This document shows, in pieces, positions 5,565 to 48,018 of a DNA stretch of 64,000 nt. The position numbers were made by a program, and so were the translations under genes. The DNA is taken from assembly GCA_021781555.1 (NCBI GenBank), contig JAJXWQ010000006.1, forward strand, positions 1,560 through 65,559. The letters run 5' to 3'. Position 1 is the stretch's first letter; each line of letters begins with the position of its first letter. Under the pieces are notes generated by a model, which made no database searches, had not been told where the DNA came from, and saw nothing but the letters and a program-made list of their open reading frames with translations. Origin of the DNA: a bacterium. GTDB lineage: Bacteria; Cyanobacteriota; Sericytochromatia; S15B-MN24; VGJW01.

Positions 5565-6410
5565 TCACGGCCCCGGCGGCGGGCTGGGGGTGGGCGTCGG
5601 AGCCGGGGTCGGCTGGACCTGCGCCAGCACGAGCGCCTGGGTTTCCAGGAGGAGCCGGTCGGACCACTGACCGACCGCCGAGACGACATTCGGGACCATC
5701 AAGGCCATGAGGACGAAGCCCACCGTGGGCTTGACGTTCATGACGATCTGCAAGATGTTCGAAACCGACGGGGCGGCCCGGTTGATGATCCCGAGGCCGA
5801 AGTCCACCAGGAACATGACGACGATCGCCGGCATGGCCAGCTGGATCGCGATGTAGAAGAAGTCCAGGACGATGTTGCCCGCGTGATTCCAGACGTCGAG
5901 GTTCAGCTGGAACCCGCCCAGGGGCACGAGCTGGAAAGTCTGGTAATAGGCTGAAAGAAACCATAGCTCGCCCCCGATGGCCAGGAACGCCGTCTGGGAC
6001 AGGTAGAAGAAGAGGTTGCCGACCGCCGTCGTCTGCATGTGCATGCTGGGGTTGAGGGTCGTCATCATCGAGAGTCCGGTGGCTGTCGCAACCATCTCTC
6101 CGGCGGCCTGGAAGGCGTAGAAGAGGATCATCGCGGCCATTCCGAAGAGGTAGCCCGTCCCGAACTCGACCAGAGCCGCCAGCACGAAGGCCAGCAGCTG
6201 GTGCGGAACGGCCGGGGCGGTCTTGAGGGTCCAGAAGTACACGAGCGACAGTGCCAGGGCCAGGCCGGCGCGCACCATCCCCGGGACCGTCTTCGCCCCG
6301 ATGATGGGCGCCTGCTGCAACACGCCGATCGTCCGAACCATGATGAGCGCGAAGACCGGTGCCGCCTGGCCGAGCAGGGCCAGCGCAGATTGCTCCCAAG
6401 CCTCGCTCAA
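5565..6410 (-). CDS. fliR: flagellar export apparatus protein FliR
   Basis: 281-aa polytopic membrane protein 4 nt downstream of fliQ. FliR-like pattern (APVFALIMVRTIGVLQQAPIIG...). Pro/Thr-rich C-terminal tail. Confidence 0.85.
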   Translation of the reverse strand: MSEAWEQSALALLGQAAPVFALIMVRTIGVLQQAPIIGAKTVPGMVRAGLALALSLVYFWTLKTAPAVPHQLLAFVLAALVEFGTGYLFGMAAMILFYAFQAAGEMVATATGLSMMTTLNPSMHMQTTAVGNLFFYLSQTAFLAIGGELWFLSAYYQTFQLVPLGGFQLNLDVWNHAGNIVLDFFYIAIQLAMPAIVVMFLVDFGLGIINRAAPSVSNILQIVMNVKPTVGFVLMALMVPNVVSAVGQWSDRLLLETQALVLAQVQPTPAPTPTPSPPPGP

Positions 6411-6413
6411 GGT

Positions 6414-6686
6414 CTAGTGCCCCAGCAGGCTGGGAATGGACCCGTAGAGTTCCTTGACGAAGCCCACCAGCGTCGCCAGCAGCCACGGTCCGGTGGCCAG
6501 CAGGACCCCGAAAACCGCCAGGGTCTTGGGCACGAAGGAGAGGGTCTGCTCCTGGATACTCGTCACCGTCATGATGAGGGCGACGATGAAGCCGACCAGC
6601 AAGCTGGTGAAGATGACCGGCGCACTCATGACGATGATCATGATGATGGCCTGCTGGGCAATGTGAATGACGGTTACGTCGCTCAT
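6414..6686 (-). CDS. fliQ: flagellar export apparatus protein FliQ
   Basis: 90 aa, two TM segments, canonical SIQEQTLSFVPK motif. Confidence 0.9.
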   Translation of the reverse strand: MSDVTVIHIAQQAIIMIIVMSAPVIFTSLLVGFIVALIMTVTSIQEQTLSFVPKTLAVFGVLLATGPWLLATLVGFVKELYGSIPSLLGH

Positions 6687-6737
6687 CTGGCGTCCCTTCG
6701 CGGTGCTCGGGCAGTTCGTGGCTGGGCCATCAGATCG

Positions 6738-7448
6738 TCACCGGAACGAGGACACGACGGCCTGTGCGATCAGGTGCCAGCCGTTGGCCAGTGTAAAGAT
6801 GAGGATCTTGACCGAGGTCGAGATCATCTGCGGCGGGAGCATGCTCATTCCCAGCGCCATCAGGACGTTGGCGACGACCAGGTCGATCACGAGGAAGGGA
6901 ATGTAGATGACGAAACCGATCTTGAACGAGGTCGTCAGTTCGCTGATCATGAACGCCGGGATGGCGACCTGCATCGGAACGTCCGCCGGGGTTCTGGGGT
7001 CGGGTTCGTGCGTCAGCCTCACGAAGAAGGCCAGCTCGTGTTCGTCGGTCTGGCGGATCATGAAGTCCCGCAGGGGGTTGACCGCGTCGGAGATCGCCGT
7101 GGCCTGATCGATCTGGCGGTGCAGGTAGGGCTGGATGGCGTTGTGGTCGATGGACGTCCAGACCGGGTTCATCGTGTAGATCGCCAGGAACAGGGCCAGA
7201 CCGATCATCACCGGATTGGGCGGGATCGTCTGGGTTCCCATGGCCTGCCTCAGGAAGCTGAAGACGATGACCGTGCGGACGAAGCTCGTGGTCATGATCA
7301 AGAGGAATGGCAGGATCGTGAGCATGGCCATGAAGATGATGAGCTGCATCGGGGTCGTCAGGCCCGGATGGTCGATCGGTGCCCGCAGGTCGATCTGGTT
7401 CAGCAGAGCTGCGGCCGCGGCGGACATCGGTGCCAGGAGTGCCGTCAC
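6738..7448 (-). CDS. fliP: flagellar export apparatus protein FliP
   Basis: Motifs TSFVRTVIVFSFLRQAMGTQTIPPN and PAFMISELTTSFKIGFVIYIPFLVIDLVVANVLMALGM. Confidence 0.93.
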   Translation of the reverse strand: MTALLAPMSAAAAALLNQIDLRAPIDHPGLTTPMQLIIFMAMLTILPFLLIMTTSFVRTVIVFSFLRQAMGTQTIPPNPVMIGLALFLAIYTMNPVWTSIDHNAIQPYLHRQIDQATAISDAVNPLRDFMIRQTDEHELAFFVRLTHEPDPRTPADVPMQVAIPAFMISELTTSFKIGFVIYIPFLVIDLVVANVLMALGMSMLPPQMISTSVKILIFTLANGWHLIAQAVVSSFR

Positions 7449-7488
7449 CTTGCGACCTCCCGGGCGAGCGGGCGTTCCAGGGTAGCCA

Positions 7489-7905
7489 TCATCCGCGCAC
7501 CTCCTGCTGCAACGACTGCTCGAAGTCTGGGCCCGGATCGAGCTCGGCCAGGGTGTTGATCGAATAGTTCGTCATGCCGACCAGGAATCTCCGCTTTCCG
7601 TGGCTCACGACGATGATCGACCGCTGGGGATCCACCGGCAGGCGTTCGTCGATCCGCAGGTCGCGCGCTCGCAATCCAAGACCCCCCGGCAGCGCCAGGC
7701 GTCCCTTGCCGAGTCGGGCGGCGACATAGGCCAGCAGCCCGAGCACGACCACGACCCCGAGGAGGTTGAGCGTGTACTGCCCCAGCCCGATATCGGGAAT
7801 GCCCGAGTTCAGTGGGCTGGAACTGGCCGCAGAAAGCCACGAGCCCTGGCGCGTGCCGGCTGCCGCGGCCAGGAGGCCCGACGCTGCGGCGGCGAAGGCG
7901 ATCAA
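7489..7905 (-). CDS. fliO: FliO-like flagellar protein
   Basis: 138 aa with a single TM segment (LLGVVVVLGLLAYVAARL), followed by LPVDPQRSIIVVSHGKRRFLVGMTNYSINTLAEL, typical of FliO. Lies between fliN and fliP. The TTG start overlaps the fliN stop (TTGA). Confidence 0.6.
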   Translation of the reverse strand: MIAFAAAASGLLAAAAGTRQGSWLSAASSSPLNSGIPDIGLGQYTLNLLGVVVVLGLLAYVAARLGKGRLALPGGLGLRARDLRIDERLPVDPQRSIIVVSHGKRRFLVGMTNYSINTLAELDPGPDFEQSLQQEVRG

Positions 7906-8240
7906 CTGAGGGCTCCCGACAGCTCGGACTGGTAGATCCGCGTGATCTTGATGCCGAAGTTGGCGCCGAGCACGACGACCTCCCCGTCGGCCACCACCTT
8001 CCCGGCGACGTAGACGTGCACGGGATCGCCGGCCAGCTGATCGAGCTCGATCACGCTACCCTCGACCAGCTTCATGACCTCGCGCAGCGGCAGGCTGGTG
8101 CGGCCGAGTTCGACCGTGACCGTCAGCCGGATGTCGCGCAGCAGGTCGAGATTGGAGCGAACGGGATCTCCACCACCGGCCGCACCGCCCAGCGGGCCAA
8201 AGCGGACCGAGCTGTAGGCTTGCTTTTCGAGGTCGGTCAC
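7902..8240 (-). CDS. fliN: flagellar motor switch protein FliN (SpoA domain)
   Basis: 112 aa. C-terminal IRLTVTVELGRTSLPLREVMKLVEGSVIELDQLAGDPVHVYVAGKVVADGEVVVLGANFGIKITRI. ATGA overlap with the upstream gene. Confidence 0.85.
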   Translation of the reverse strand: MTDLEKQAYSSVRFGPLGGAAGGGDPVRSNLDLLRDIRLTVTVELGRTSLPLREVMKLVEGSVIELDQLAGDPVHVYVAGKVVADGEVVVLGANFGIKITRIYQSELSGALS

Positions 8241-9631
8241 GAGGCGCCTCCCTTCAGGGCTTCAACCGTCCCGGACTCGAGCTTCACGACCTTGACGGCG
8301 ACGTGGTTTTCGTAGGCTGCCGGTCTCGACCGGCCGACGGTCCGGCCGTTGATGCAGAGGGCGACCGAGCCATCGGGATTCCTCGGCATCTCGAGCAAGG
8401 AGCCCTCTTCGAGCGTCAGCCAGTCCGCCAGCGATATCTCGAGCTGACCCAGCCGGGCGCTGATCTGCACGTAGACGCTCGAGAGCTGGCCCAGGGCCTG
8501 GTCGAAGGACAGATCGAAGTCGGGCTTGCGAGCCGAGAGCAGGTTGACCGCCTCGACCTCGGGCTCTTCGTCGTCGTTCGCAACCGCTGTCGGCGGGGTG
8601 AAGGCCGGCGGCGGAGCGTCCGTCAGGCCCATCTTCTGGACGAGGGCCTGGAGATCCCGCCCGAACGAGGACGCCAGCTGCTCGGTTTCCGCCACGAGGG
8701 CGCCGAAGTCGAGTTCGGGCATCTCGTTCTTGGGCAGCGGCGGGATCGTGACCTTCATCGGCGGTTCTTTCTCCGCCGGCTTGGGATCGGTGAACGCGAC
8801 GGTCACGTCGCCGCGCCCGAGAAAGACCATCGCACCCGCCAGTAGCCAGGAGCCCGAGACCAGCCCCATCGTGAAGGCGTGGTTGGGATCCGGGAGCGCG
8901 CCCAGGGCGTAGCGCAGGGCCAGGATCGTCTCGGGAGGGCTCGCGCTGCCGCTTGCGGCGGCAGAGACCGCCCAGATGATGACGAACCCGAAGCCGAAAC
9001 CCAGTGCCCAGCCGTAGTAGTAGCCGATGAGCGTCCGCAGCAGGGGCCAGAAACTGGCCGTACCGAATGGCTCCTGGCGCGGATCGAAGGCCTCCTTGCG
9101 CAGGGCCGACGCCAGCCCGGCACCGATGGCGAAGGCCGTGGCGTATCCCAGCGCGCCCCAGAGGGCTCCCCCGAAGAAGTTGGGGGCCAGGACCCACGGA
9201 CTGAAGGCCGCGACGGATGCAGTGCCGACCACCGGTTCGTGCAGGGCGAGCTTGGCCGCCAGTTGCAGCCAGCGCTGCGGGTGCTCCATCGCGTTGGGCG
9301 TGAGCTGGAGTGCCCAGCCCCCCGGCGTGCCCCAGAGGTTGAGCAGGCCGAAGAGAAAGAGTCCGGTCGCCACCGGCAGCGTCTTCCAGATGGAGGGTGC
9401 CGAGATGACGCTCTTGGGCACGGAACGGCGGTACATCAGGTGGTAGGCCAGGCTGGCCAGGAAGCCGGCGATCGCCACGAACCAGAGTCCGAGCACCACG
9501 ACGTGGAGCCCGGCTCCGCCGCGGGTGAGCATTGCCATGACCAGCAGCAGCGGCGCGATGCCGAGGATCAGCCCGAAGAGCTGCCCGCCCAGCCCCGGGC
9601 GGGGTCGACGGCGCGTTCTCTCCTCGGCCAT
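8237..9631 (-). CDS. polytopic membrane protein with a C-terminal SpoA (FliN/FliY-like) domain
   Basis: 464 aa. At least 6 hydrophobic segments in residues ~15-275, then a Pro/Glu-rich linker. The C-terminal VYVQISARLGQLEISLADWLTLEEGSLLEMPRNPDGSVALCINGRTVGRSRPAAYENHVAVKVVKL aligns with the FliN and FliM SpoA domains. Tightly packed between fliM and fliN. Confidence 0.7.
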   Translation of the reverse strand: MAEERTRRRPRPGLGGQLFGLILGIAPLLLVMAMLTRGGAGLHVVVLGLWFVAIAGFLASLAYHLMYRRSVPKSVISAPSIWKTLPVATGLFLFGLLNLWGTPGGWALQLTPNAMEHPQRWLQLAAKLALHEPVVGTASVAAFSPWVLAPNFFGGALWGALGYATAFAIGAGLASALRKEAFDPRQEPFGTASFWPLLRTLIGYYYGWALGFGFGFVIIWAVSAAASGSASPPETILALRYALGALPDPNHAFTMGLVSGSWLLAGAMVFLGRGDVTVAFTDPKPAEKEPPMKVTIPPLPKNEMPELDFGALVAETEQLASSFGRDLQALVQKMGLTDAPPPAFTPPTAVANDDEEPEVEAVNLLSARKPDFDLSFDQALGQLSSVYVQISARLGQLEISLADWLTLEEGSLLEMPRNPDGSVALCINGRTVGRSRPAAYENHVAVKVVKLESGTVEALKGGAS

Positions 9632-9634: not shown

Positions 9635-10534
9635 CTAGCCCTCGGGCCCCAGGCGCACGATCTGGACGGCCCGGCGCATGCCATCCGGGGACGTCCCCGC
9701 CTTGCCCAGCACCTTGGCGCCGCCGAGCGAGATCTCGAGAGGCGTGGTGACCAGCTGGTCGAGGAGGATCACGTCGGCCTCCTCGAGGTTCTGGAGCTCC
9801 GACAGCGTCATCTCCGTGCTGCCCAGCGAGACCTGGATCGGGACCGGCACGTCACCGAGGAAGTCGAGCCGTTCCTCGATGGCATCATCCTTGCCGTTGA
9901 GGAAGGTCATCTCGGCCGCGGCCTCGAGCGATTGCTGCAGGGGGATGAGATAGGGCTGCGGGATGGTCAGCACGAGGCGCCCGAGGGCCTGGCCGGGAAT
10001 GGCGACGCGGAAGGTGGTGCTGGCCATCGGCGTGGCCCCCGAGAGGCCGGTGAAGATCTCCTGCAGGTCCTGCAGCGAGGGTGCCTCCTCGAAGAGGCCG
10101 AGCTGGGGTTCGAGGGTCGCGATGTCCGACCAGGCCTGGCCGAAGAGGTCGGTCACGCGGGCCAGCACGGTGTCCAGCAAGGCCAGGCGATCGCCCGATA
10201 CGGCCTGGTTCGGCAACGCCCCGACCAGCAGGCGCGCGGTGTCTTCGAGCAGCAGCAAGAAGGCGCCGCCGGCTTGCTCGGTGTACTGGAGCACGCCCCA
10301 GAAGGCGCCCTCGGCGAAGCGTTCGGCAACCTGAGCGAAGGGCCAGAGCTCGATGCCCGAGACGGACCACGTGGCCCTCGGGGCGACGTGGTCCTCGTCC
10401 TCGAACTCGGTAAGGGCCTGCGCGATCTGGTTTCCCAGATAGTAAAGGGCCCGAAACTGCGTCGAGTTGCTGCCTGACGACAGCTCGTCCATGCGGTGGA
10501 TGTACCCCGGGTACCGGCGGTCGACGCCGGGCAA
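9635..10534 (-). CDS. fliM: flagellar motor switch protein FliM-like
   Basis: 299 aa. The middle region resembles the FliM/CheC fold. C-terminal SpoA segment VPVPIQVSLGSTEMTLSELQNLEEADVILLDQLVTTPLEISLGGAKVLGKA. TTG 10534 has GAGG 5 nt upstream; ATG 10492 is an alternative start. Confidence 0.7.
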   Translation of the reverse strand: MPGVDRRYPGYIHRMDELSSGSNSTQFRALYYLGNQIAQALTEFEDEDHVAPRATWSVSGIELWPFAQVAERFAEGAFWGVLQYTEQAGGAFLLLLEDTARLLVGALPNQAVSGDRLALLDTVLARVTDLFGQAWSDIATLEPQLGLFEEAPSLQDLQEIFTGLSGATPMASTTFRVAIPGQALGRLVLTIPQPYLIPLQQSLEAAAEMTFLNGKDDAIEERLDFLGDVPVPIQVSLGSTEMTLSELQNLEEADVILLDQLVTTPLEISLGGAKVLGKAGTSPDGMRRAVQIVRLGPEG

Positions 10535-10643: not shown

Positions 10644-11786
10644 CTACTTCACGAGGTTGTTGATGTCGTCGATCATCTCGTTGCCGATCTGCACGATCTT
10701 GACGTCCGCGCTGAACGACTTCTGGGCGATCGTGAGCTCGGGCAGCGTCGTGTTGACCGAGGCGTTCGAGACCTCGATGGTGCCGGGGTTGATCGTGTTG
10801 GTCGCGCCCACGTTGGTCGGAACCTGGGCCGAATTGGGATCGGTGGGGGTGGTGAAGGCGTCCGCATGCCCGGCTACTCCGAGGAAGAACTGCCCGGCCA
10901 CGGGATTCCAGTCGAAGTTGGTGCTGCCGCCATCCTTGATCAGGCCCTGGGGATCCGCGAACTTGGCGATCGCCACGAAGGCCACGCGATGCACGGGATT
11001 GGCCGCCGTCGAAGTCGGCGCGGCCGGGGCGTCCGAGTTCTCCGAGCTGTTGGTGACCCAGCCCGATGCGTCGAACTTGGGCGTGAAATCGGTGTTCAGG
11101 GAGGTCTCCCCCTGGTTGTTGGGACTCTGGAACGGGATCTCGATGGGCCGGAACTGGAAGCCGGTGCCAAACATGCCCTGGACGTTGCTGGCTTGGGAGA
11201 CCGGGTTGTTGAGGGGCGTATTGTCGCTGAAGGCGCCCTCCTTCGGGTAGACGGGCGTCCCGGGCAGGTTGGCGGCGGCGTTGGACTTGTAGGCCGAGTT
11301 CCAATCGCTCTGCATCCCCATCACGAAGAGGCCGTCCTGGTTGACCAGTCGGTAGGTCCCGACGGTCCCGGGGCTCCCGTCCGGCATGGTGGTTCCGGTC
11401 GTGAGGAAGTCGAAGTGGAAGCTCCCGTTGCGCGTGAACACGAGATCCTTGAGGCTGGTGGGGTGCGCGACCTTGGACAGGACGAACATCCCGTCGCCCG
11501 AAATGCCGAGGTCCGTGGGCTGGTTGGTCGTCTGCAGGGAGCCCTGCGAGAAATCGGTCTCCACGGCCGCCAGCGTGGCGCCGCTATCCGAGACCTGCAT
11601 CGGCGGGATGGCGCTGCCACCGTTCTGGAGCGCGGGGGAGCCCGCGGAGATCTGCTGTGCGAGGACATCCTTGAACTCGACGTCCTGAGCGCGGAAACCG
11701 TTGACGTTGGATCCGGTCAGGTTCCCGGCCAGCACTCCGAGCCACTGGTCGACCCCTGACAGCGCGTTGATCGCGCCCGTACGCAT
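10644..11786 (-). CDS. flgE: flagellar hook protein FlgE
   Basis: ATG 11786 with AAGGAGA upstream; the track ORF is extended to 12086. N-terminal rod/hook domain (LAGNLTGSNVNGFRAQ), DLGISGDGMFVL, FTRNGSFHFD, and C-terminal IEVSNASVNTTLPELTIAQKSFSADVKIVQIGNEMIDDINNL. Follows flgD. Confidence 0.75.
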   Translation of the reverse strand: MRTGAINALSGVDQWLGVLAGNLTGSNVNGFRAQDVEFKDVLAQQISAGSPALQNGGSAIPPMQVSDSGATLAAVETDFSQGSLQTTNQPTDLGISGDGMFVLSKVAHPTSLKDLVFTRNGSFHFDFLTTGTTMPDGSPGTVGTYRLVNQDGLFVMGMQSDWNSAYKSNAAANLPGTPVYPKEGAFSDNTPLNNPVSQASNVQGMFGTGFQFRPIEIPFQSPNNQGETSLNTDFTPKFDASGWVTNSSENSDAPAAPTSTAANPVHRVAFVAIAKFADPQGLIKDGGSTNFDWNPVAGQFFLGVAGHADAFTTPTDPNSAQVPTNVGATNTINPGTIEVSNASVNTTLPELTIAQKSFSADVKIVQIGNEMIDDINNLVK

Positions 11787-11853
11787 TCCCACGATCGTCT
11801 CCTTCGAAGTCCCGAGCGGCCCGGCCTGCGAGCCGCGAGAATCGTCCCTTGCC

Positions 11854-12276
11854 CTACTGCCCGACCTGGGTGACCGACGACAGGGGATACAGCGTGCCGT
11901 CGACGTTGACCTCCGGTGTGCTGCCGGAGTAGTTGAGTCCTGCGACCTTGCCGGTGACCGTGGCGCCAGGATTGGTCGCGCTCGAATCCGATACCGTGAC
12001 GGTCTGGCCGAGGAGGTCGGAGGCCGTCTGCATCTCCTGGTAGGTCTGGGACATCTGGGCCAGCTGGTCCATCCCGACCGCCGCATTGATCTGGGCGTAC
12101 TGCGAGACCATGTCGGTGGAGCTGACCGGGTTGTCGGGATCTTCGTTCGTGATCTCCGACGCCAGCAGGGTGGTGAAATCCTGGAGCGGACTGCTGCTGG
12201 GGTCGCTCATCCCGCCAGACTGGACGGTGCCGGCCGGCGGTGAATACAGAATGCTCTGAATGTTGCGGACCGTCAT
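11854..12276 (-). CDS. flgD: flagellar hook assembly/capping protein FlgD
   Basis: ATG 12276 with GGAGGAGA upstream; the track ORF is extended to 12531. 140 aa. Motif NEDPDNPVSSTDMVSQYAQINAAVGMDQL matches the FlgD N-terminal signature. Confidence 0.75.
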   Translation of the reverse strand: MTVRNIQSILYSPPAGTVQSGGMSDPSSSPLQDFTTLLASEITNEDPDNPVSSTDMVSQYAQINAAVGMDQLAQMSQTYQEMQTASDLLGQTVTVSDSSATNPGATVTGKVAGLNYSGSTPEVNVDGTLYPLSSVTQVGQ

Positions 12277-12394
12277 TTGAGAACTCTCCTCCGGATGGTC
12301 GCCGGATGCGCCTTCCCGTCCATGCCGGTCCCCATGTACCCAGCGGGTTACCGACCTATCCCAACAGCGACCTAACCAGGCGTTCAAGAGTGTT

Positions 12395-12421
12395 AAATCG
12401 GCAACCCGTCCTTCCGGTTTG
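12395..12421 (-). promoter_or_regulatory. candidate sigma-28 (FliA)-type promoter upstream of flgD
   Basis: The minus strand reads CAAA-N15-GCCGATTT (consensus TAAA-N15-GCCGATAA), ~120 nt upstream of the flgD ATG. Confidence 0.3.
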
Positions 12422-12488
12422 TTAAATGCGGAGGTAGGTTCACGCTGGAGAGGTCGGAATGTCCCGTCACGACGCGCTCTCGGCGCTT

Positions 12489-12596
12489 TTAGAGTGCTCG
12501 CGGTTTGAATGGATCGAGCCCGAGGAGTCAAACGGGGCCCGGTTGCGCAGCGAAGCGACCGCGCAGAGGGACCCGTTCAAACTGCAAAAGGCCTAG
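12489..12596 (-). repeat. CTAG-bounded hairpin repeat (MITE/REP-like), full copy
   Basis: 108 bp. Its reverse complement is near-identical to the 48104-48210 copy. Ends are TTAG...CTAG. Confidence 0.85.
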
Positions 12597-12647: not shown

Positions 12648-12908
12648 ATGACCTGGTTGGCATGGGCGGGGGTCGGGCTGGTCTCCGGATGGCTGGCCGG
12701 ACTGGCTACGCGTTCCGATCTGGGAATCCTGGGAGACCTCGCCGCGGGGCTCATCGGTGCGTTCATCGGCGGGATCCTCTTCAACTTGACCGGAAGGGTC
12801 GGCGTCACGGGCTTCAATCCCTGGAGCATTCTGGTCGCGTTCGTCGGCGCCGTGGTGCTCCTGTTGATCATCCGCGGCATCCGCAGCGGCGTCCGACACG
12901 CGCCATAG
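12648..12908 (+). CDS. GlsB/YeaQ/YmgE family stress-response membrane protein
   Basis: 86 aa with three Gly-rich TM segments (GVGLVSGWLAG..., GDLAAGLIGAFIGGILF, SILVAFVGAVVLLLIIRGI), typical of transglycosylase-associated proteins. Confidence 0.8.
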   Translation: MTWLAWAGVGLVSGWLAGLATRSDLGILGDLAAGLIGAFIGGILFNLTGRVGVTGFNPWSILVAFVGAVVLLLIIRGIRSGVRHAP

Positions 12909-13071: not shown

Positions 13072-15609
13072 GTGGCTTGGTATAGATCGGGCGTGCAATC
13101 AAGGGCTCCGGGAGCCGCAGTCAGCTTCGTGCTGGCGGCGCTGGTCCTCCTGGCCTCGCCGGCCTTTTGCCCCCCTGCGTCGGGGGCGCGAAAGGCCGGG
13201 GTTCGGGCTCGGGGTCCCGAGCTTGCGTCTGCCGCAGGGTACCGGATTCGCCTGCACAGGGGAAAGCGGCCGGTCCCGGCCGGAATCCCGGGGATCCTCC
13301 GCCTGGAACGGCTCGCCGGCCGGGACGATCGTGCCGAGGATGCCCTTGCCGATCGAATCTCCGGCCGGATCTGGCCAGTGCCCGTGTGGGAGCGACTCTC
13401 GCGGGCCGGAGCGCAGGCCCTGCGCGTCGACCCGGAGTTCCTGGCGCTTCTGGACCTCGGTCCGGGGGGAGCCGCGGATCCCCTCTCCCTGGCGGATCCC
13501 ATCCTCTTCGCCGCAGCTCGCCGCTTCGGCCAGGACGCATCCGGGCTCTCGGCGCCCGCCTTGCGGCTGTGCACCCGGTCTTCGGACGCGGGGCTGCGCG
13601 CCCAAGCTGCGCTGGCGCTCGGCTTTGCCCGGGACCCCGGGGGCGAGCCTTTCCTCGCCGCGTTGGTGCGCGATGTCGAGCCGACGGTGCGGGTGCGGGC
13701 CGTCCAGGCGCTCGGGCTGATCGGCGATCCCGCCGCCTTGGCGGTGCTCGAGGCCGCCCTTTCGGATCGCCAGGAGGAGGTCCGCGTCGCCGCCGCCCAT
13801 GCGCTCGGGGAGCTCCGGGATCCCGCGGCGAGTGAGGCACTGTGGCAGGTCACGGCATCCGGGGATTCCGTCTTGCGCAGGGCGGCCTTCGAGTCCATCG
13901 CGGAGATCGGCGGCGCGACGAGCAGTCCGGTCCTGCGCCGCGCTCTGGCCGATCCCGCCTTCGTCGGGGGCGGGGCCTCGAACGTCGATGCGCTCTATGA
14001 CCTGGCGCGGGCCGCAGGGCGGGCCAGCGACGCGGCGACACTGGCGCAGTGGTCCCGCGACGTGAGCGATCCGGATCCGGTGCTGCGCCGGGCCACCGTC
14101 GTGGCGCTCGGAGCGTCCCGCGATCCGCTTGCCGTGCCCGCTCTCGTTCGCGCCCTGGCCGATCCGGACGGCCAGGTGCGAGGACTGGCGGCCGATGCCC
14201 TGGGTGAGGTCGGCGATCCGTCGGCAGCCGGGCCGCTGCTGAAAGCTCTGGCGGGAAAGCAGGCGCTGCTGGCCGGTCAGGATCGTGCCGCTCCGGCGTT
14301 GGTGGCGATCGGGGCCTTTGCCATGCGAGATCGTCTGCGCCAGCTAGCGGCCAGCCCCGATCCCGCGGTTGCGAGTGCGGCGCTGGCGGCGCTCGGCAAG
14401 CTGGGAACGGCGGCGGATGTGCCGATCGCCGTGCAGGACCTGGCTGCTTCGGATTCCTTGGAGCGAGCGGCTGCTGCCGGGGCCCTGGCCGATCTCGCGG
14501 TCTCGCCTTCGGCCAGGGCCGCCGAAACCTCCTGTGGCGCGTGGGGTCGGGTGGGCGTGCTTACGGATGCCGACCTGGCGGCCAGGACCTCGCGAGCGCG
14601 TCCGCCGATCGATTGTGCCCTGCGGGGCCTCCTGAAGGCGGCCAGGGATCGGGATCCGCTGGTCCGGGCCGCGGTGGCCGAGGCCCTGGGGGCCCTGGCC
14701 GACGGACGCGCATCCGGCGAGCTCTTCGCGCTTTCGCGGGACGCCGATCCCTCTGTCGCTCAGGCTGCGCGGGTGGCGCTGGGGCGCTCGGGCGTACCGT
14801 GGGCCGATCGCTCGCTCGAGCACGATGTCGAGGCCGGATCGACCGGAGCTGCACTGGGTCTTGCCGAGCTCGGGGGGGCGACCAGCGCGAGCCACATCGC
14901 GATGCTGCTCGAGTCGCAGGATCCGGGCAAGCGCGGGCCGGCCGCAACCGCCCTGTCACGCCTGGTCGGGCGGGGCCCGGTGTCCCCTGCCGCCATCGCG
15001 GCGCTGCTGCGCTCGATCCGCGATCCCGACCGCGACGTCCGGATCCAGGCTGCGGTGTCGCTGTCCGCCGTGCCCGGAGCGGAGGTCGGGTTGGCCCTGC
15101 AGCGCGCGGCGCTCACGGCCAATCCGGAGGTCCGCCCCTGGTTCGCGGCCAGCGCCATCCGTCAGGCGACGCTTTCCGGGTCAAGAACAGGGGCACGAGG
15201 TGACCTGGTTCGGCGTGACGCGGGCCGGCCCGGGTTGGCCCGCGACTGGGCCCTGCTGGCCGACGGTGCTGGCGACGCGGATCCGGAGTTCCGACTGGCG
15301 GCGCTGTCGGCCCTCGGCTGGCTGGCCCGGCCGCGCGGGTTGCAGCTGGCCGTGCCAGCTTTGGTATCCCGGTGGCCTGCCGTGCGCGACGCGGCAGTGG
15401 ACGTGCTCGTCCGCACTCCGGCAAGCGCGTCGGGCCGTCTGCTCGATGCCATCGTCGAACGGGGCCACTGGTCCGAGGCCGTGCGGGCTCTGGACGAGGT
15501 CTCGGGCCGGGATCCGCGGGTCCCTGGCCTCCTGGGTTCGGCCCTGGCGGCACGCGACATCCGGACCCGCTGGGCGGGCGAGCGGCTGGCCGCGAGAGCC
15601 AGGCGCTGA
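13072..15609 (+). CDS. HEAT-repeat (PBS-lyase HEAT-like) protein with an N-terminal hydrophobic leader
   Basis: More than 15 repeats of the type VRVRAVQALGLIGDPAALAVLEAALSDRQEEVRVAAAHALGELRDP. N-terminus ...AVSFVLAALVLLASPAFCPPASGA. Start uncertain (GTG 13072 or GTG 13093). Confidence 0.8.
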   Translation: MAWYRSGVQSRAPGAAVSFVLAALVLLASPAFCPPASGARKAGVRARGPELASAAGYRIRLHRGKRPVPAGIPGILRLERLAGRDDRAEDALADRISGRIWPVPVWERLSRAGAQALRVDPEFLALLDLGPGGAADPLSLADPILFAAARRFGQDASGLSAPALRLCTRSSDAGLRAQAALALGFARDPGGEPFLAALVRDVEPTVRVRAVQALGLIGDPAALAVLEAALSDRQEEVRVAAAHALGELRDPAASEALWQVTASGDSVLRRAAFESIAEIGGATSSPVLRRALADPAFVGGGASNVDALYDLARAAGRASDAATLAQWSRDVSDPDPVLRRATVVALGASRDPLAVPALVRALADPDGQVRGLAADALGEVGDPSAAGPLLKALAGKQALLAGQDRAAPALVAIGAFAMRDRLRQLAASPDPAVASAALAALGKLGTAADVPIAVQDLAASDSLERAAAAGALADLAVSPSARAAETSCGAWGRVGVLTDADLAARTSRARPPIDCALRGLLKAARDRDPLVRAAVAEALGALADGRASGELFALSRDADPSVAQAARVALGRSGVPWADRSLEHDVEAGSTGAALGLAELGGATSASHIAMLLESQDPGKRGPAATALSRLVGRGPVSPAAIAALLRSIRDPDRDVRIQAAVSLSAVPGAEVGLALQRAALTANPEVRPWFAASAIRQATLSGSRTGARGDLVRRDAGRPGLARDWALLADGAGDADPEFRLAALSALGWLARPRGLQLAVPALVSRWPAVRDAAVDVLVRTPASASGRLLDAIVERGHWSEAVRALDEVSGRDPRVPGLLGSALAARDIRTRWAGERLAARARR

Positions 15610-26691: not shown

Positions 26692-29600
26692 ATGGCCATC
26701 GCCGCTCCAGAACCCACCCAGGCGGGCTACCGGCCCGTCCATCCGACCCGCTTCGTCACGGCCGCCGCGTTGTTCGATGGCCACGACGCCGCCATCAACA
26801 TCATGCGGCGGATCCTCCAGGCCACCGGGGCGGAGGTCGTCCACCTCGGGCACAACCGCTCGGTTGCCGAGATCGTGCAGGCGGCCATCGCCGAGGATGC
26901 GCAGGGCGTTGCCGTCTCGAGCTACCAGGGCGGCCACATGGAGTTCTTCAAGTACCTGGTGGACGAGCTCCGAGCTGCGGGTTTTGGCCACGTCGGCGTC
27001 TATGGCGGGGGGGGCGGGGTCATCGTGCCCGAGGAGATCGCCGAGCTAGAGGCCTACGGAGTCGCCAAGATCTTCAGCCCCGAGGATGGCCGGCTCATGG
27101 GCCTGCAGGGAATGATCGACCGGATGGTGACCGAGTGCGATCGGCCCCTGCCGGCCGCGCCCGATCTGGCGCGGCTGGCCGTCGACCAGCCGGGCGTCGT
27201 CGCCCGGGCGATCACCTACGCCGAGGCGGACCGGCTCGACCCGGGAGCCCTCGGGGAGCGGCGCAGCGCCACGCCGCCCGTGGTGGTGGGATTCACCGGC
27301 ACCGGCGGGGCCGGCAAGAGCAGCCTGGTCGACGAGATCGTGCGGAGATTCCTCGCCGATCAACCCGGCAAGACGGTCGCCATCCTCTCGGTCGACCCGA
27401 CGCAGCGCCGCACGGGAGGCGCCTTGCTCGGAGACCGGATCCGCATGAACGCCATCTACGACCCGCGGGTCTACATGCGCTCGCTGGCCACGCGGGCCGC
27501 CCATGCCACCAGCTCCAGCGCCCTGCCCCAGGCCATCGACATCGCCTGCCGGGCCGGTTTTGACCTCATCATCGTCGAGACGGCCGGCATCGGGCAGTCG
27601 GATTCGCAGATCGCCGATCTGGTGGACGTCTCCACCTACGTCATGACATCCGAGTACGGTGCCGCCAGCCAGCTCGAGAAGATCGACATGCTCAGCTACG
27701 CCGACCTGGTCGTGCTCAACAAGTTCGACAAGCGGGGGGCCGAGGACGCCCTGCGCGACGTCCGCAAGCAGGTCCAGCGGAATACCGGAAGGTTTGAGCG
27801 CGGCCTTGAGGACATGCCCGTCTTCGCCACGATCGCCAGCCAGTTCAACGACGCGGGGACGACCTGGTTCTACGACAACCTCCTGCGGGTCGTCGCCGAA
27901 AGGACCCGCCTGGACTGGAAGCCGCGGAACCCCGCGAGTCCGAAGCAGTCCCGGCGCCAGGTCCTGGTCGGTGCCGACCGTTCCGCCTACCTTTCCGAGA
28001 TTGCCCGCACCGTCCGCAAGTACCACGAGCAGACGCGCCAGCAGGCCGAGACGGCGTCGCTGGCCTACGCCTACTGGAAGGCGCTCCAGGAGCTCGACCC
28101 GGCGGCTCCCGCGGCGGGCCAGCCCTATGCTCCCGAGCTGCTGGTCTCAGGGGATACGGCGATCGCCGTCCTGCGCCAGCGCTACACCGAGGCCCTGGCC
28201 GATCTCGATGCCGACACGCTGGCCCGGATTCGCCAGTGGCCGGAGGTCGTGCAGTCCTACACCCAGCCAGCCCACCACTACACGGTGCGCGGGCAGGTCC
28301 TGGCCGTCGAGAACTACTCGACCACGCTGTCCGGGAGCTCCATCCCCAAGGTCGCGCTGCCGAGCTACCGCGACTGGGGCGATCTGGTCGGCTGGCAGGG
28401 CGCCGAGAACGTGCCCGGGCGCTTCCCCTACACCGCGGGAGTCTTCGAGTATCGCCGCCGCAGCGAGGATCCGACGCGCATGTTCGCGGGCGAGGGCACG
28501 CCGGAGCGCACCAACAAGCGGTTCCACTACCTGGCCCCCGCGGGGGACGATCCGGGCTGCGCCCGTGTCGCCCGCCTGTCGACCGCCTTCGACAGCGTCA
28601 CCTTGTACGGCGAGGATCCGGGCCTGCGGCCGGACGTCTACGGTAAGATCGGCAACTCGGGCGTCTCGATCTGCACCGTCGACGACGCGCGCAAGCTGTA
28701 CAGCGGCTTCGACCTTTCGGCGCCCACCACGAGCGTCTCGATGACGATCAACGGCCCGGCCCCGATCGTCCTGGCGATGTTCTTCAATGCCGCGATCGAT
28801 CAGCAGGTCGAGCGGCACCTGACCGATAGCGGCAAGCTCGACCTGGCCCGGGCGACGATCGCCCGGTGGTGCGCCGAGCGTGGCAGCGAGCCGCCGCGCT
28901 ACGGAGAACCCCTCCCTGCGGGCAACACGGGCCTCGGGCTGGCCACGCTGGGCATCCCCTCGCGGCTCCTGGTCGACGCAGCCACCTACGAGCGCATCAA
29001 GGACCAGACCCTCAAGGTCGTGCGCGGGACCGTCCAGGCCGACATCCTCAAGGAGGATCAGGCGCAGAACACCTGCATCTTCAGCACCGAGTTCGCCCTG
29101 CGGATGATGGGCGACATGCAGGCCTTCTTCATCCGCAACGAGGTCCGCAACTTCTACAGCGTATCGATCTCCGGCTACCACATCGCCGAGGCCGGGGCCA
29201 ATCCGATCACGCAGCTGGCGTTCACCCTGGCCAACGGCTTCACCTACGTCGAGTATTACCGGTCGCGGGGCATGGCGATCGACGAATTCGCCCCCAACTT
29301 GAGCTTCTTCTTCAGCAACGGGCTCGACGCCGAGTACTCCGTGATCGGGCGGGTCGCCCGGCGCATCTGGGCCGTGGCGATGCGCGATCTTTACGGCGGA
29401 AACGAGCGCTCGCAGAAGCTCAAGTACCACATCCAGACCTCAGGTCGCAGCCTTCACGCCCAGGAGATCGATTTCAACGACATCCGCACGACCTTGCAGG
29501 CGCTCTATGCGATCTCCGACAACTGCAACTCGCTGCACACCAATTCCTACGACGAGGCCATCACGACTCCCACCGAGGAGTCCGTGCGCCGGGCTCTGGC

Positions 29601-30120
29601 GATCCAGCTCATCATCAATCGCGAGCTGGGCCTCTCCCGCAACGAAAATCCCCTGCAGGGTGCGTTCATCGTGGAGCAGCTGACGCAGCTGGTCGAGGAC
29701 GCCGTGCTGGCGGAGTTCGATCGCATCTCCGACCGTGGTGGCGTGCTCGGTGCGATGGAGACGATGTACCAGCGCAGCCTGATCCAGGAGGAATCGCTCC
29801 ACTACGAGCGGCTCAAGCATTCGGGCGAGCTGCCCATCGTCGGCGTCAACACCTTCCTCAACCCCGGGGCGCAGCCCCTGGGGGCGCCCGAGCTGATTCG
29901 CTCCACCGAGGCCGAGAAGCGCGAGCAGGTCGACAATCTCGGCGCGTTCCACCGGCGCAACGCGGCCGAGGCTCAAGCGGCGCTGGCTCGTCTGGTGGAG
30001 GTCGCACGTTCGGGCGGCAACCTCTTCGAGGAGCTGATGGAGACCGTGCAGTTCTGCTCGCTGGGCCAGATCACGTCCACGCTGTACGGCGTGGGGGGGC
30101 AGTATCGCAGGGCGATGTGA
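26692..30120 (+). CDS. icmF: fused isobutyryl-CoA mutase (B12 domain - MeaB-like GTPase - mutase catalytic domain)
   Basis: 1142 aa. N-terminus [38 protein letters not shown]...SSYQGGH. Internal P-loop [22 protein letters not shown] and NKFDKRG. The C-terminal ~600 aa is a TIM-barrel mutase domain ([26 protein letters not shown]). Confidence 0.9.
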
Positions 30121-38016: not shown

Positions 38017-39774
38017 TTATCCGGCCGAGAAGAGCCTCAGGGGCTGTCTGCCATGGGGCGCCAGGGGAATCCAGCGCACGAAGGCGCCTCTGGACACGTC
38101 GTAGAGCCCGATCCGGTTCCCCGCCAGGGCGGCGAGAGTCCGTGGATCTACCCACGCAAGGCTGGTCAGCGGGGCGGGGGCGGGGATCTGTGCGGTGACG
38201 GTCCGCTTGCGGACGTCGATGCAAGCCAGCAAACCCTTGCCATCAGCCCCGGCTTCGGCCACGTAGAGGAGCTTGCCGGGCCGGTTGGCGATCATCGCCA
38301 CGGGGCGGCGAGCGAGGGCGATCGGCATTCCGTCCGCCGCGCTGCCGGTCGGATCGAGGCTCGTCGCCTCGAACTCGAGCTCTCCTCGATCCAGGTCGAA
38401 GACCCCGGCGGGGAGGTAGAGGGTGGTGCCGGTCGTGAAGGGGTAGGGGATCTCGTCAGGGCGATCGAAGCCGATCTCGAAGTCCCAGGTGCGCTCGCCG
38501 AAGTGCGCGATGACGGTGCGGCCAAATCCAAGCAGCACGCGTCCTGCGGCCTGCTCGAAGCCCAGGTCGTAGGCACCGAGCTCGGGCGCGTTGAAGGTCT
38601 TGATGATCTCGAACCGGCGCAGGCTGAAGGGCTTGAGATCCACCAGGTCGACCTCGGAGCGACTCGGAATGTGAACGACCAGGAGATTTTCGCGCGGCAG
38701 GTAGAGCCCTGCGTCGGCGGGCCCCGGGAGCGGCACGGCGCCGTAGGTATCCGGATGGAGGGTGTCCACGACCTCCAGGTGATCGGGATAGGCCACGAGG
38801 ATGGGCCGGGAGAGCCCCCAGGCCGCGGCCCGGGTCGAGCCGAAGAGGAGCAGCGCGCCGACCAGCGCGGCCAGGGGCCCCGTGAGCTTGCGTGCGATCG
38901 CCCCGTCGGGGGCCTGGCTCGCGGCCTGGCTGGCCTCTTCGGCGAGGAACTCCCAGCGGTTGTGCACCCAGAGCCAGTGATCGGGATTGGCGCGGATCCA
39001 GGCCTGGTAGCGGTCCACGATTTGCTGGGCGTTGACCTGGGGATCCGGGTCGAGATCGAGCGCCGGTTCGAGGATGAGGCGATGGCGATCGCCCGGACCT
39101 CGAACCATCCGTGCCGGAACGATGGCTGCGCCAGTCCGCCGCGCCAGGGTGAAGGGCCCCAGCGGAACCCACACGCGCTGGCCGAGAAAGGTTGCGGTCG
39201 CCTCCCGGGCCGGCCCGTGCTGATCGACCAGCAGCATCAGCATCTCCCCGGCTCGCAAAGCGCGCAAGGCAGCCCGAATCGACTGCGGGCCCGTGTTGGA
39301 TATCGTGCGCCCGCCCACCATGGCACGGTACTCGATGAAGAGGCGGGCAAAGGCGTCCTTGCTGGGCGTCTGGACCAGGGCGGAGACCCGCCCGAACTCC
39401 CGGGCCAGGGTCGCGCCCATGAGCTCCCAGTTGCCGAAGTGGGCCGAAACGATGATCGCACCTTGCCCCGCGGCCAGGGCGGCCTCGAGGTGCTCCCGGC
39501 CGGAGATCTCGATGATGCGGCTGCCTTCTTGATCCAGCAGGGGGTAGCGCATGAGCTCCACGATCGACCGCGTCAGCAGGACGAGCGCATCCGAGCCGAG
39601 CTCGTTTGCCTGACGAGCGCTCATCTCCGGCCACGCGGTGCGGATGTTCGTCGAGACGAAATCCCGGTAAGGGGTCAAGCGGTAGATTCGCCAGACGACC
39701 CGCGCAAAGGCCGTCGCGATCCCGAGCGCCAGGCGCCTGGGCAGCGTACAGGCCACGGCCCCGAGAGTCCGCAT
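38017..39774 (-). CDS. LpxL/HtrB-family lipid A acyltransferase fused to a TM segment and a ~290-aa C-terminal beta-rich domain
   Basis: GAIIVSAHFGNWELMG, MLMLLVDQH, GPFTLARRTGAAIVPA and ANPDHWLWVHNRW. These are followed by the TM segment LTGPLAALVGALLLFG and an extracytoplasmic domain. Start uncertain (ATG 39774 chosen). Confidence 0.75.
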   Translation of the reverse strand: MRTLGAVACTLPRRLALGIATAFARVVWRIYRLTPYRDFVSTNIRTAWPEMSARQANELGSDALVLLTRSIVELMRYPLLDQEGSRIIEISGREHLEAALAAGQGAIIVSAHFGNWELMGATLAREFGRVSALVQTPSKDAFARLFIEYRAMVGGRTISNTGPQSIRAALRALRAGEMLMLLVDQHGPAREATATFLGQRVWVPLGPFTLARRTGAAIVPARMVRGPGDRHRLILEPALDLDPDPQVNAQQIVDRYQAWIRANPDHWLWVHNRWEFLAEEASQAASQAPDGAIARKLTGPLAALVGALLLFGSTRAAAWGLSRPILVAYPDHLEVVDTLHPDTYGAVPLPGPADAGLYLPRENLLVVHIPSRSEVDLVDLKPFSLRRFEIIKTFNAPELGAYDLGFEQAAGRVLLGFGRTVIAHFGERTWDFEIGFDRPDEIPYPFTTGTTLYLPAGVFDLDRGELEFEATSLDPTGSAADGMPIALARRPVAMIANRPGKLLYVAEAGADGKGLLACIDVRKRTVTAQIPAPAPLTSLAWVDPRTLAALAGNRIGLYDVSRGAFVRWIPLAPHGRQPLRLFSAG

Positions 39775-39986
39775 CACGAGGTACAAAGCCCGGGTGCCGC
39801 CCGTCACCGCCACGAGTCCTTCGAAACCGTATCCTCGAGAGGCCGGCGCCGTCCGCAGCGAAGCCGCGAGCAACCGCTGTTGAGAGCTTGCACGAAGCAG
39901 GTATACCCGAGCCTGGCCGGTTTGACCGGAGCCGAGGTCGGGTACGGCCCCGATTGACCCTCGAGCCTCTCCCCGAACCCAGGTCC

Positions 39987-45900: not shown

Positions 45901-47135
45901 CCCAGGAGCGCGAGCACTGGGAAGCCCTCGTGGAGCTCGTCCCGGACAGCCAGGACGCGCTGCGCGAACTCGGGCGGATCGCCCGGGAGGACCGGGACTT
46001 CACGACCGCCGAACGGCTCCTCGAGAAGGCCCTGGACCAGGATCCAGGCGACCGTGCCGCAGCCTTCGAGCTGGGTCTTCTCAACATGGCGACGGGGAAC
46101 CGTCAGGGGGCTCGGACCGCCTTCATGGATATCCTCGAGCAGGATCCCTACCAGGCGGGGACCCTGCTCGAGATCGCCCAGCTGGACTGGGACGAGGGGG
46201 ATCCCGACGGCGCCTGGTATCACGTGCAGGAGTTGCTGGCACTCGAGCCCACCAACGCCGCTGGGCTGGCCCTGTTCACAAAGCTGGCGCGCCGCTTCGC
46301 CGAGCGCACGGCGGCGACGGGCGATCTCAAGAGCTCTATCGAGTGGTGGCAGCTGGCCGTCAGGCAGTCGCCCAAGGATACCGAACTGCTGCGCGAGCTG
46401 GCCGAGGCCAGGGTCCAGGGCGGAGATTTCGAGGGCGCGGCGGTCGCTTTCGGGCGGCTGCTGGAGCTGTCTCCCGGGGATCTTGACGCCGCGCACCGGG
46501 CCGCCGACACCTATCGACACATGGGCGACTGGGCCCGGGCCGAGGCGGCGTTGCGTCGCGTGGTGGAGCTCGATCCGCACCACGCGGCCTCCCTCCGGTC
46601 GCTCCTGAAGCTCACGCGGGAGCAGGGCAATGCCCCCGAGGTGATGAACTGGGCCTACGCCCTGCTGGATCTCGATCCCAAGGATCCAGACGCCCTGTTC
46701 CAGCTGGCCTGGGCCCACAACACGCTGCTCGAGAAGAAGGCAGCGCTCGTGACCTTCGAGGAACTCCTCAAGCAGCAGCCCCAGCACGCTGCCAGCTGGC
46801 ACCAGGCCGCGATCCTTTACCGGGACCTCGGTGACCTGGATGCGGCGCGCAAGGCGGCTACGAACGCGATCGTCTACGGGCCGAAGCCCGAGTGCCACGT
46901 CACCCTGGGGACCATCTACGGAAGGATGGGCCTGTGGGACGAGGCCGTCGCCGCATTCAGCCAGGCGCTGGTCCTCCAGCCGGACTACGCCGACGCCCTG
47001 GCCCAGCTGGGCTTTGGCTTGTTGCAGCTTCGCCGACCCGACCAGGCGCGGCCTCATCTCGAGCGGGCGATCACCCTCTTGCCCCGCGGCGAGGAGCTCG
47101 CCCTGTCGGTGCGCTGCGCCCTCGACCTGATGTGA
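39987..47135 (+). CDS. giant tetratricopeptide-repeat protein (2382 aa)
   Basis: ATG 39987; the track ORF starts 127 codons upstream, overlapping the divergent gene. Wall-to-wall TPR-type repeats ([10 protein letters not shown]..., A...L..AL.LDP), with no signal peptide or other domain seen. Confidence 0.85.
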
Positions 47136-47211
47136 AGCTCCGCTGGCAAGGCTGCAACCCGCGGTGGCGGGCGAGCCGGCAATCTCGGTCTGGATCTGCT
47201 TTGATAGAGCC

Positions 47212-48018
47212 ATGGCAGTCAAGCTCGGAATCAACATCGACCACGTCGCCACCCTGCGGCAGGCGCGCCTGACCATCGAGCCAGATCCCGTCGCTGCGGC
47301 CGTTCTCGCCGAACTCGGGGGGGGCGACGGCATCACGGTGCACCTGCGAGAGGATCGCCGGCACATCCAGGACCGGGACGTCGAGCTGTTGCGGCAGACG
47401 GTCCGGACCCGGCTCAACCTCGAGATGGCGGCAGCGTCCGAGATCGTCGACATCGCGGTCCGGTTGCGGCCGGATCAGGCCACGCTGGTGCCCGAGCGCC
47501 GCCAGGAGCTCACGACCGAGGGCGGCCTCGACGTGGTCCAGGCGGGGGCGAGGCTCAAGGAGGTGGTTTCGAGGCTCCAGGACGCTGGCATCGCCGTGAG
47601 CCTCTTCATCGACCCGGATCCCGAACAGATCGCGGCGGCCCACGCGGTGGGTGCGGATCAGATCGAGCTTCACACTGGCCCCTACGCCGAGGTCTCCCTG
47701 CGACCAGGCTGGACGCAACCCGCTTCCAGCGACGCTCGCCTGCGGGGTCAGTTCACGCCGGGCGCTGACCGGGTTGCGGCCGAGCTGGCCCGTCTGGAGA
47801 CCGCCGGTCGGCAGGCTCGGTCCCTGGGGCTGATCCTGGCTGCCGGTCATGGCCTGACGTACTGGAACGTGGCCCCGGTCGCGGCGATCGAGGGCATGCA
47901 CGAACTCAACATCGGCCATTCGATCATCGCCAGGGCGGTGCTGGTCGGAATGGAGCGCGCCGTCCGGGAGATGAAGGCGGCGATGGGCCCCCCCCCCGCT
48001 AGACCTTTTGCAGCTTGA
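47212..48018 (+). CDS. pdxJ: pyridoxine 5'-phosphate synthase
   Basis: [50 protein letters not shown] and [15 protein letters not shown] 47212. There is a ~21-aa insertion after HTGPYAE. The last 6 codons and the stop lie inside the repeat. Confidence 0.9.

Follow-up and report, generated by a model that had tools for sequence, protein, structure and literature searches.

A SpoA-domain protein with a predicted six-helix membrane domain, encoded between fliM and fliN in non-photosynthetic Cyanobacteriota

To our knowledge, the switch complex of the bacterial flagellum (FliG, FliM and FliN or FliY) is soluble in every characterised motor and hangs from the MS ring only via FliG. SpoA domains normally fold as intertwined dimers; those of FliM-C with FliN, and of FliN with FliN, make up the C-ring base, and SpoA domains also dock FliH-FliI. 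Here we describe a gene, referred to as gene X, in a stretch of 64,000 nucleotides (the window) of contig JAJXWQ010000006.1 from a Sericytochromatia bacterium (assembly GCA_021781555.1). The product of gene X joins this known domain of a known machine to a new membrane domain, contradicting the textbook picture of a soluble switch complex. The author of an earlier note on the same DNA knew of no description of this architecture, and our searches of Pfam, NCBIfam, the PDB and the accessible literature likewise revealed none; full-text searches for a transmembrane (TM) SpoA protein yielded only lists of the presence or absence of flagellar genes in Melainabacteria.

FliY of Bacillus subtilis, Thermotoga, Campylobacter and Helicobacter is likewise a larger protein that ends in a SpoA domain and is encoded beside fliM. 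Gene X is placed directly after fliM, the same slot that fliY occupies in Bacillus-type clusters, as the earlier note had recognized. However, FliY is soluble and contains a CheC-like domain, whereas X instead contains a six-helix membrane domain of no known family. According to passages of PMC6946799, FliY coexists with FliM and FliN in epsilon-proteobacteria, where the three SpoA proteins together build one C-ring base through SpoA-SpoA contacts. FliN has the same Pfam SpoA family at its C-terminus as X, and FliN of H. pylori was the second-best PDB sequence match; nevertheless, FliN is small and soluble (about 100-140 amino acids, aa), whereas X is four times longer and predicted to be embedded in the membrane.

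In the sorting platform of the injectisome, SpoA assemblies are also linked to an inner-membrane protein, as proposed here for X: SctK connects the SctQ pods with SctD, the ring in the inner membrane, and the platform does not rotate. That link is non-covalent and involves separate proteins, whereas the membrane part and the SpoA domain of X belong to one chain. Furthermore, X has flagellar genes as neighbours (FlgD and FlgE, with flagellin in the orthologous locus L001), unlike injectisome SctQ. Salmonella FliF-FliG fusions, known from natural and engineered mutants, demonstrate that a switch protein covalently joined to a membrane protein can still work in a rotating motor. Such fusions are of laboratory or spontaneous origin and join two known rotor parts at the top of the C-ring, whereas X occurs naturally, is conserved, and combines a new membrane domain with a SpoA domain of the type found at the C-ring bottom.

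A conserved integral-membrane SpoA protein would add a second, different link between the membrane and the C-ring or the export platform. Three questions are touched by it: what holds C-rings and sets their size, how docking of the export ATPase relates to the membrane, and how flagellar motors diversified in a deep-branching lineage for which no structural study is known. The invariant cytoplasmic motifs of X are ready targets for interaction screens.

Predicted architecture of the gene X product

Gene X and its parts have the following window coordinates:

8237..9631 including the stop codon, minus strand: gene X, putative membrane-anchored SpoA protein of 464 aa (open reading frame list, third-position GC content, homologues)
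8816..9631, minus strand: N-terminal polytopic membrane domain, aa 1-272, six predicted TM helices (hydropathy, AlphaFold2, charge counts)
9044..9100, minus strand: predicted cytoplasmic loop between TM4 and TM5, aa 178-196 (RKEAFDPRQEPFG...WP) (alignment conservation, AlphaFold2)
8489..8815, minus strand: predicted cytoplasmic linker, aa 273-381, about 110 residues (alignment A1, region statistics, AlphaFold2)
8279..8488, minus strand: SpoA (FliMN_C) domain, aa 382-451 (PF01052, PDB sequence matches)

The window's list of open reading frames (ORFs) and the Pfam and NCBIfam assignments of the neighbours agree with the earlier placement of a single 464-aa ORF between fliM and fliN. The ORF is ATG-initiated and uninterrupted, and its GC content at third codon positions (GC3) is uniformly high, being 0.88 over the entire gene and similar to that of the flanking genes. 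The fliM stop codon TAG is separated by 3 nt from the ATG of gene X, with GAGGG upstream of the latter, and the gene X stop and the fliN start share a 4-nt overlap, with GGGAGG located 7 nt upstream. This overlap reads GTGA, because the start codon of fliN is GTG; the 3-nt gap reported previously was correct, whereas the reported 'ATGA' was not, although the junction is of the same kind. Based on the 3-nt gap, the 4-nt overlap and the Shine-Dalgarno-like sequence at each junction, the gene arrangement suggests co-translation of X with fliM and fliN at matched amounts.

The C-terminal domain, previously aligned with SpoA by eye, matched the PF01052 profile over aa 382-451 with an E value of 4.9e-12 and 46 bits, above the gathering cut-off of 23.8. 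In PDB sequence comparisons, the SpoA part matched YscQ-C best (3e-6), followed by H. pylori FliN (8.6e-6), and Foldseek returned weak matches to FliN and HrcQb. In an AlphaFold2 model of X built on 20 homologues, the SpoA part as a monomer had a predicted local distance difference test score (pLDDT) below 50; such a poor monomer model fits a domain that would fold only as an intertwined dimer.

When X was scored against NCBIfam models, its best score was 44.9 bits on the SctQ model TIGR02551 (cut-off 100.8), followed by 36.8 bits on the fliN model TIGR02480 (cut-off 84), on which the neighbouring FliN reached 97.4 bits. The fliM model TIGR01397 and the FliY model NF005995 gave 24.3 bits (cut-off 219.6) and 12.9 bits (cut-off 218), respectively, in both cases over the SpoA part only. 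The FliM middle domain PF02154 had no match in X in Pfam, and no CheC-family domain was found in a Pfam scan at E up to 0.1. Judged by these profile scores, X is a SpoA-domain protein yet not a member of the FliN, FliM, FliY or SctQ families. Its membrane domain is concealed by current annotations, which assign such proteins to FliN or FliN/FliY (JGI records) or label them 'FliM/FliN family flagellar motor switch protein'.

A Kyte-Doolittle scan recovered all six hydrophobic segments that had been listed for the N-terminal part of X, within aa 15-272. In the AlphaFold2 model, long helices were located at residues 15-37, 44-69, 81-104, 158-176, 195-226 and 249-271, with block pLDDT values for aa 11-270 mostly between 80 and 96, and 65-68 in two cytoplasmic loops. 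Shorter helices were modelled in loops 3-4 and 5-6, and short strands at 74-77 (loop 2-3) and 179-182 (loop 4-5), both in cytoplasmic loops. Charge counts for the positive-inside rule, taken across 20 homologues and expressed per sequence, gave 4.7 K+R and 1.1 D+E for the N-tail and 3.0 K+R and 0.1 D+E for loop 2-3; periplasmic loop 1-2 had 0.1 and 0.0, and loop 5-6 had 0.9 and 2.4. The N-tail and loop 2-3 are basic and are predicted to be on the cytoplasmic side. From this charge bias and the six-helix count, X is predicted to have an N-in/C-in topology with the SpoA domain in the cytoplasm, in agreement with the orientation that the earlier note had required. The predicted periplasmic part of the window protein is limited to a pair of loops, about 47 and 24 aa long.

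Loop 4-5 (aa 178-196), with the motif R-x-E-x-F-D-P-R-Q-x-P-F-G, had a mean major-residue frequency of 0.81, the maximum of the membrane domain, and R178, E180, F182, D183, R185, Q186, G190 and W195 were invariant in the family alignment. Because conservation of the membrane domain peaks in this loop, the strongest constraint within the membrane half of X is on its predicted cytoplasmic face.

Pfam scans of 14 family members, with E values up to 1 allowed, gave no match to the membrane domain, and the NCBIfam scan of X gave no match outside the SpoA part. A structure search of the TM region against PDB folds likewise gave no match; the top hits, to bacteriorhodopsin and G-protein-coupled receptors, had root-mean-square deviations of 15-23 Å and probabilities of at most 0.16 and were regarded as noise. 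Derivation from the window's FliR or FliP was rejected on hhalign probabilities of 0.2% and 1.2%, respectively (alignment A2), and a comparison with the nearby GlsB-type protein revealed no similarity. FliO, FliQ, MotA, FlhA and FlhB were tested indirectly, their Pfam models having no match in the same 14 members (E up to 1). A Tat motif was rejected by eye, as the N-terminal RRRPRP stretch is not kept as such in the alignment. A cleaved signal peptide was also rejected, with TM1 modelled at a block pLDDT of 78-95; cleavage would leave the C-in result unchanged. By these comparisons, the TM region of X is a new membrane domain family with invariant motifs on its predicted cytoplasmic side.

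The linker consists of a Pro-rich segment directly after TM6 (273-307), a helix at about 309-333, a variable acidic stretch (335-362) and a pre-SpoA segment (363-381). AlphaFold2 gave low to medium pLDDT here, with a predicted helix of 25 residues, and the helix motif is common to X and a longer sister family in a profile-profile alignment. The earlier description of the linker as about 110 aa long, acidic and Pro-rich was accurate. Mean major-residue frequencies were 0.82 in the pre-SpoA segment and 0.72 in the Pro-rich segment, against 0.74 in the SpoA domain. Since parts of the linker are among the best conserved stretches of X, it is more than a spacer. Its invariant short motifs sit at low AlphaFold2 confidence, the usual signature of partner-binding peptides. 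With about 108 residues, including the 25-residue helix, the linker should be long enough to span the height of the C-ring.

Distribution of gene X and its longer relatives

A homologue search, with clusters defined at 90% identity, revealed 26 full-length X clusters of 459-471 aa and 44-94% identity, together with one 312-aa fragment, all with PF01052. Taxon names are the depositors' labels throughout; those given for the clusters were Candidatus Sericytochromatia, Cyanobacteria bacterium REEB65 and UBA8530, and the majority of named records belong to Sericytochromatia. In a species scan based on one genome per GTDB species, 14 X loci were identified: nine from Candidatus Sericytochromatia, one each from Candidatus Tanganyikabacteria and Cyanobacteria bacterium UBA8530, two labelled only 'bacterium', and one on a short contig labelled Stenomitos. 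Wherever the contig extended far enough in both directions, as it did for 13 of the 14 loci of the species scan and for the two loci from metagenomes, fliM, X and fliN were adjacent. The two short contigs each show part of the trio: locus L003 ends just after X, and L007 has only fliM as an ORF, though X was matched. A relative with 45% identity keeps the order flgD-flgE-fliM-X-fliN-fliO/P-fliQ-fliR, followed by flagellin.

Locus L007 (DATNQJ010000027.1) is a 4.4-kb contig with fliM and X, binned in a metagenome-assembled genome of Stenomitos sp., an oxygenic cyanobacterium. It is most likely a mis-binned Sericytochromatia contig and not a flagellar gene of a photosynthetic cyanobacterium.

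A profile of the non-SpoA part (X aa 1-340) was searched against 1.84 billion cluster representatives and gave 19 matches in all, comprising the X family, a longer sister family of 550-775 aa and two linker-only matches (P0041 and P0043), which are long repeat proteins that match the Pro-rich linker only. A C-terminal SpoA domain was present in nine of ten family matches of at least 338 aa scanned with Pfam, matches of 65-294 aa being left out of the scan; the one exception, of 437 aa, shares a cluster with a 673-aa protein. X and the sister family are homologous along their entire length, aligning with an hhalign probability of 100 (E 5e-43) over 413 columns, with the TM core and the linker helix included. 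A further homologue search, with the low-GC alignment of the long family, returned only two proteins. The sister genes used for comparison (alignment A3) were as follows:

Locus L017, 10001-12010: long sister-family gene
Locus L018, 4165-6192: long sister-family gene
Locus L019, 8775-10754: long sister-family gene

All three genes are directly after fliM; fliN follows in L017 and L018, and a response-regulator gene instead of fliN follows in L019. The long form contains three additional features, namely an extreme N-terminal conserved peptide (M-Y-Q-x-D-P-x-L-D-x-L-L-R-R-P...), an acidic run ending in LF directly behind it, and a low-complexity insert of 100-300 aa in the predicted periplasmic loop between TM3 and TM4. 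Source names of the sister family include Sericytochromatia and, for one member, Candidatus Obscuribacterales. The architecture of X thus seems to extend across two or more classes of non-photosynthetic Cyanobacteriota, with one source name as the evidence for Vampirovibrionia. Vampirovibrio chlorellavorus has two sets of flagellar genes, the conventional motA-motB-fliL-fliM-fliN and a second set, spoA-fliO-fliP-fliQ-fliR (PMC4451040, Table S3). The second set resembles the window operon, and the IMG genes 2600256632 and 2600256633 beside spoA, which are unlisted in PMC4451040, could be X and fliM.

Possible role of X in the flagellar motor

We tentatively favour, at a little under an even chance, the reading that X is a lineage-specific third SpoA subunit of the flagellar switch/export platform in non-photosynthetic Cyanobacteriota that tethers the C-ring base to the membrane. 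X would be made together with FliM and FliN, and its six-helix domain would span the inner membrane, leaving both termini on the cytoplasmic side. The linker of roughly 110 residues would reach down to the C-ring base, where the SpoA domain would pair with that of FliN or FliM, like FliY in Campylobacter and Helicobacter. Each switch protomer, or a subset of them, would thereby be tethered to a membrane domain. The membrane domain would occupy the annulus that surrounds the MS ring and would rotate along with the rotor, like the TM helices of FliF, which already rotate in the bilayer. A further component of the rotor or the export machinery, for example FliG, FliF-C or FliH, would be the partner of the conserved cytoplasmic loop and of the linker motifs. 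Within this reading, we infer SpoA heterodimerisation, the C-ring location, co-rotation and the tether function alike. In its favour are the SpoA match above the Pfam cut-off and its recurrence in the long family, the confidently modelled helices and the charge bias, the close junctions with fliM and fliN, the conserved position directly after fliM in both families, the poor monomer model of the SpoA part, and the precedent of FliM, FliY and FliN sharing one C-ring base.

In its most specific form, the proposal amounts to a new rotor element: a ring of six-helix X domains around the MS ring, each tethered to a SpoA domain in the C-ring base, so that the C-ring would be held by the membrane at its top (FliG-FliF) and at its bottom, with the loop and linker motifs of X forming a new contact surface towards the export apparatus, FliG or FliF. 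We consider this detailed arrangement rather unlikely as it stands. Co-rotation of the membrane domain is physically plausible: by a rough estimate, the drag at 100 Hz would be 1-100 pN nm, well below the stall torque, which is of the order of 1000 pN nm.

Several points weigh against a C-ring tether. A membrane domain attached to the rotor would have to avoid the stators and would add drag, and the periplasmic insert of the long family, if it binds the cell wall, would prevent co-rotation. Since a normal FliN is present, the FliN positions can be filled without X. Moreover, X has a divergent SpoA domain, as its score on the fliN model indicates when compared to that of the adjacent FliN.

The earlier note had also raised the possibility that X substitutes for FliL/stator scaffolding. 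We confirmed that motAB and fliL are not found within the 64-kb window, an absence that applies to the window rather than to the genome. FliL works through its periplasmic domain, and the predicted periplasmic part of X is only its two short loops; on these grounds, the substitution appears weak.

Alternatively, X may not rotate and may serve as an anchor of the export platform, its SpoA domain, alone or with FliN, docking the FliH-FliI ATPase or the export gate near the membrane, much as SctK and SctD link the SctQ pods of the injectisome to the membrane ring. The best NCBIfam score (SctQ) and the best PDB sequence match (YscQ-C) point in this direction, as does the operon, which runs straight into fliO, fliP, fliQ and fliR; in addition, passages of PMC6946799 identify SpoA proteins as FliH docking sites. 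We nevertheless regard an export anchor as unlikely. These scores are all far below the family cut-offs, and the coupling that is tight and conserved is with fliM, the switch protein proper. No FliH or FliI genes were found in the window or in the annotated-gene loci L001/L002 and L017-L019, and an immobile anchor, if it bound rotor SpoA domains as well, would brake the rotor.

The linker motifs would also fit a role of X as a factor of assembly or control, i.e., a membrane-bound SpoA decoy or receptor that holds FliM/FliN at the membrane to nucleate or position the C-ring, or a brake or clutch that engages the C-ring reversibly, as conserved short linear motifs with low AlphaFold2 confidence are typical of partner-binding peptides. 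The N-terminal peptide and acidic run of the long family look like a regulatory docking motif, and the response-regulator gene directly after the sister gene in L019 is in accordance with such a role. However, regulators are seldom kept strictly coupled between two structural genes across a phylum-level lineage, X contains no signalling domain in Pfam or NCBIfam, and the idea that CheY docking had shifted from FliM to X failed, as described below. We consider this role improbable.

Finally, we found nothing in favour of a frameshift or assembly error that joined a membrane-protein gene to a short fliY or fliN, and consider its chance negligible: the ORF is intact at the same length in 26 independent clusters and in 14 species genomes that stem from separate projects, a longer homologous form of 550-775 aa is found, GC3 is high throughout, and invariant residues lie inside the linker, where the supposed junction would fall. 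Because the same-length architecture recurs in this way, gene X is neither a chance ORF nor a sequencing fusion, which also disposes of the two-gene alternative that the earlier note had left to be checked. The probability beyond the readings named here covers functions not yet thought of.

Operon surroundings and other features of the window

The genes around X were assigned as follows:

9635..10534, minus strand: fliM-like gene, 299 aa at most (PF01052 at aa 226-294; TIGR01397 E 3.6e-13, below the cut-off)
7902..8240, minus strand: fliN, 112 aa, GTG start (PF01052 85 bits; TIGR02480 97.4 bits, above the cut-off of 84)
7489..7905, minus strand: fliO (Pfam FliO)
6738..7448, minus strand: fliP (Pfam FliP)
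6414..6686, minus strand: fliQ (by synteny with the L001/L018 gene carrying PF01313)
5565..6410, minus strand: fliR (by synteny with the L001/L018 gene carrying PF01311)
10644..12086, minus strand: flgE, maximal ORF 480 aa (Pfam Flg_bbr_C; NCBIfam FlgE/FlgG from aa ~105)
11854..12531, minus strand: flgD, maximal ORF 225 aa (Pfam FlgD, FlgD_tudor)
12648..12908, plus strand: GlsB/YeaQ-type protein
13072..15609, plus strand: HEAT-repeat protein

The export-gate genes fliO, fliP, fliQ and fliR are downstream of fliN in the same operon (5565..7905). In the window, fliO and fliP are separate genes, unlike the fused form of 393-425 aa (PF04347 and PF00813) in L001/L002 (11731-12912) and L018 (6603-7880). 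Upstream of fliM are flgE and flgD, whose maximal ORFs overlap by 233 nt; since they overlap, the true starts of both genes are probably internal. The family matches begin about 100 and 85 residues in, respectively, and the orthologues in L001 are 395 and 140 aa long.

The upstream boundary of the flagellar operon is formed by the 845-aa HEAT-repeat protein (local GC 0.73) and the small GlsB/YeaQ-type membrane protein, and the downstream boundary by a glycolysis block of gap, pgk, tpi and gpmI. Bounded by non-flagellar genes on both sides, this is therefore a short, isolated flagellar operon and not part of a large flagellar island. No other motility genes were found in the 64-kb window, save for one possible sub-threshold FlgE/F/G-like ORF of 335 aa (48303..49310, minus strand), whose match to TIGR03506, the N-terminal region of hook/rod proteins, has an E value of 3e-9 but, at 36.9 bits, stays below the cut-off of 70. 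This ORF is located 38 kb from the flagellar operon and may be a divergent rod/hook paralogue.

Compared with canonical FliM, the FliM proteins of the window and of loci L001 and L004-L016 have an N-terminus shorter by about 35 aa, and FliM alignments start at TIGR01397 position 34-44. Many of the orthologues in these loci start with DELNTLIMNQ or DVDPLLMG, which by eye resemble the docking motif for CheY-P and are followed by a very short linker. The motif is degenerate in the window (MDELSSGSNS) and absent from FliM of L009, L011, L012 and L013, a variation that hints at variable chemotactic control among these loci. The N-terminal peptide of the long family, together with the late starts of the FliM alignments, had suggested that the CheY-P docking peptide moved from FliM to X. 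As a general claim this was rejected, because a FliM-N-like motif is retained by many FliM proteins of Sericytochromatia, and X itself had no match to anything searched with its N-terminal peptides.

Two large genes elsewhere in the window were also recorded. The gene at 39606..47135 (plus strand) encodes a 2509-aa protein composed nearly entirely of TPR repeats; the opposite-strand ORFs 40425..43850 and 43962..47453 (more than 1100 aa) have no Pfam match and are probably shadow ORFs of this high-GC gene. At 26692..30120 (plus strand), a 1142-aa fusion of B12-binding, MeaB GTPase and methylmalonyl-CoA mutase domains with IcmF-type architecture adjoins a separate MeaB gene, inside a cluster for fatty-acid and branched-chain catabolism.

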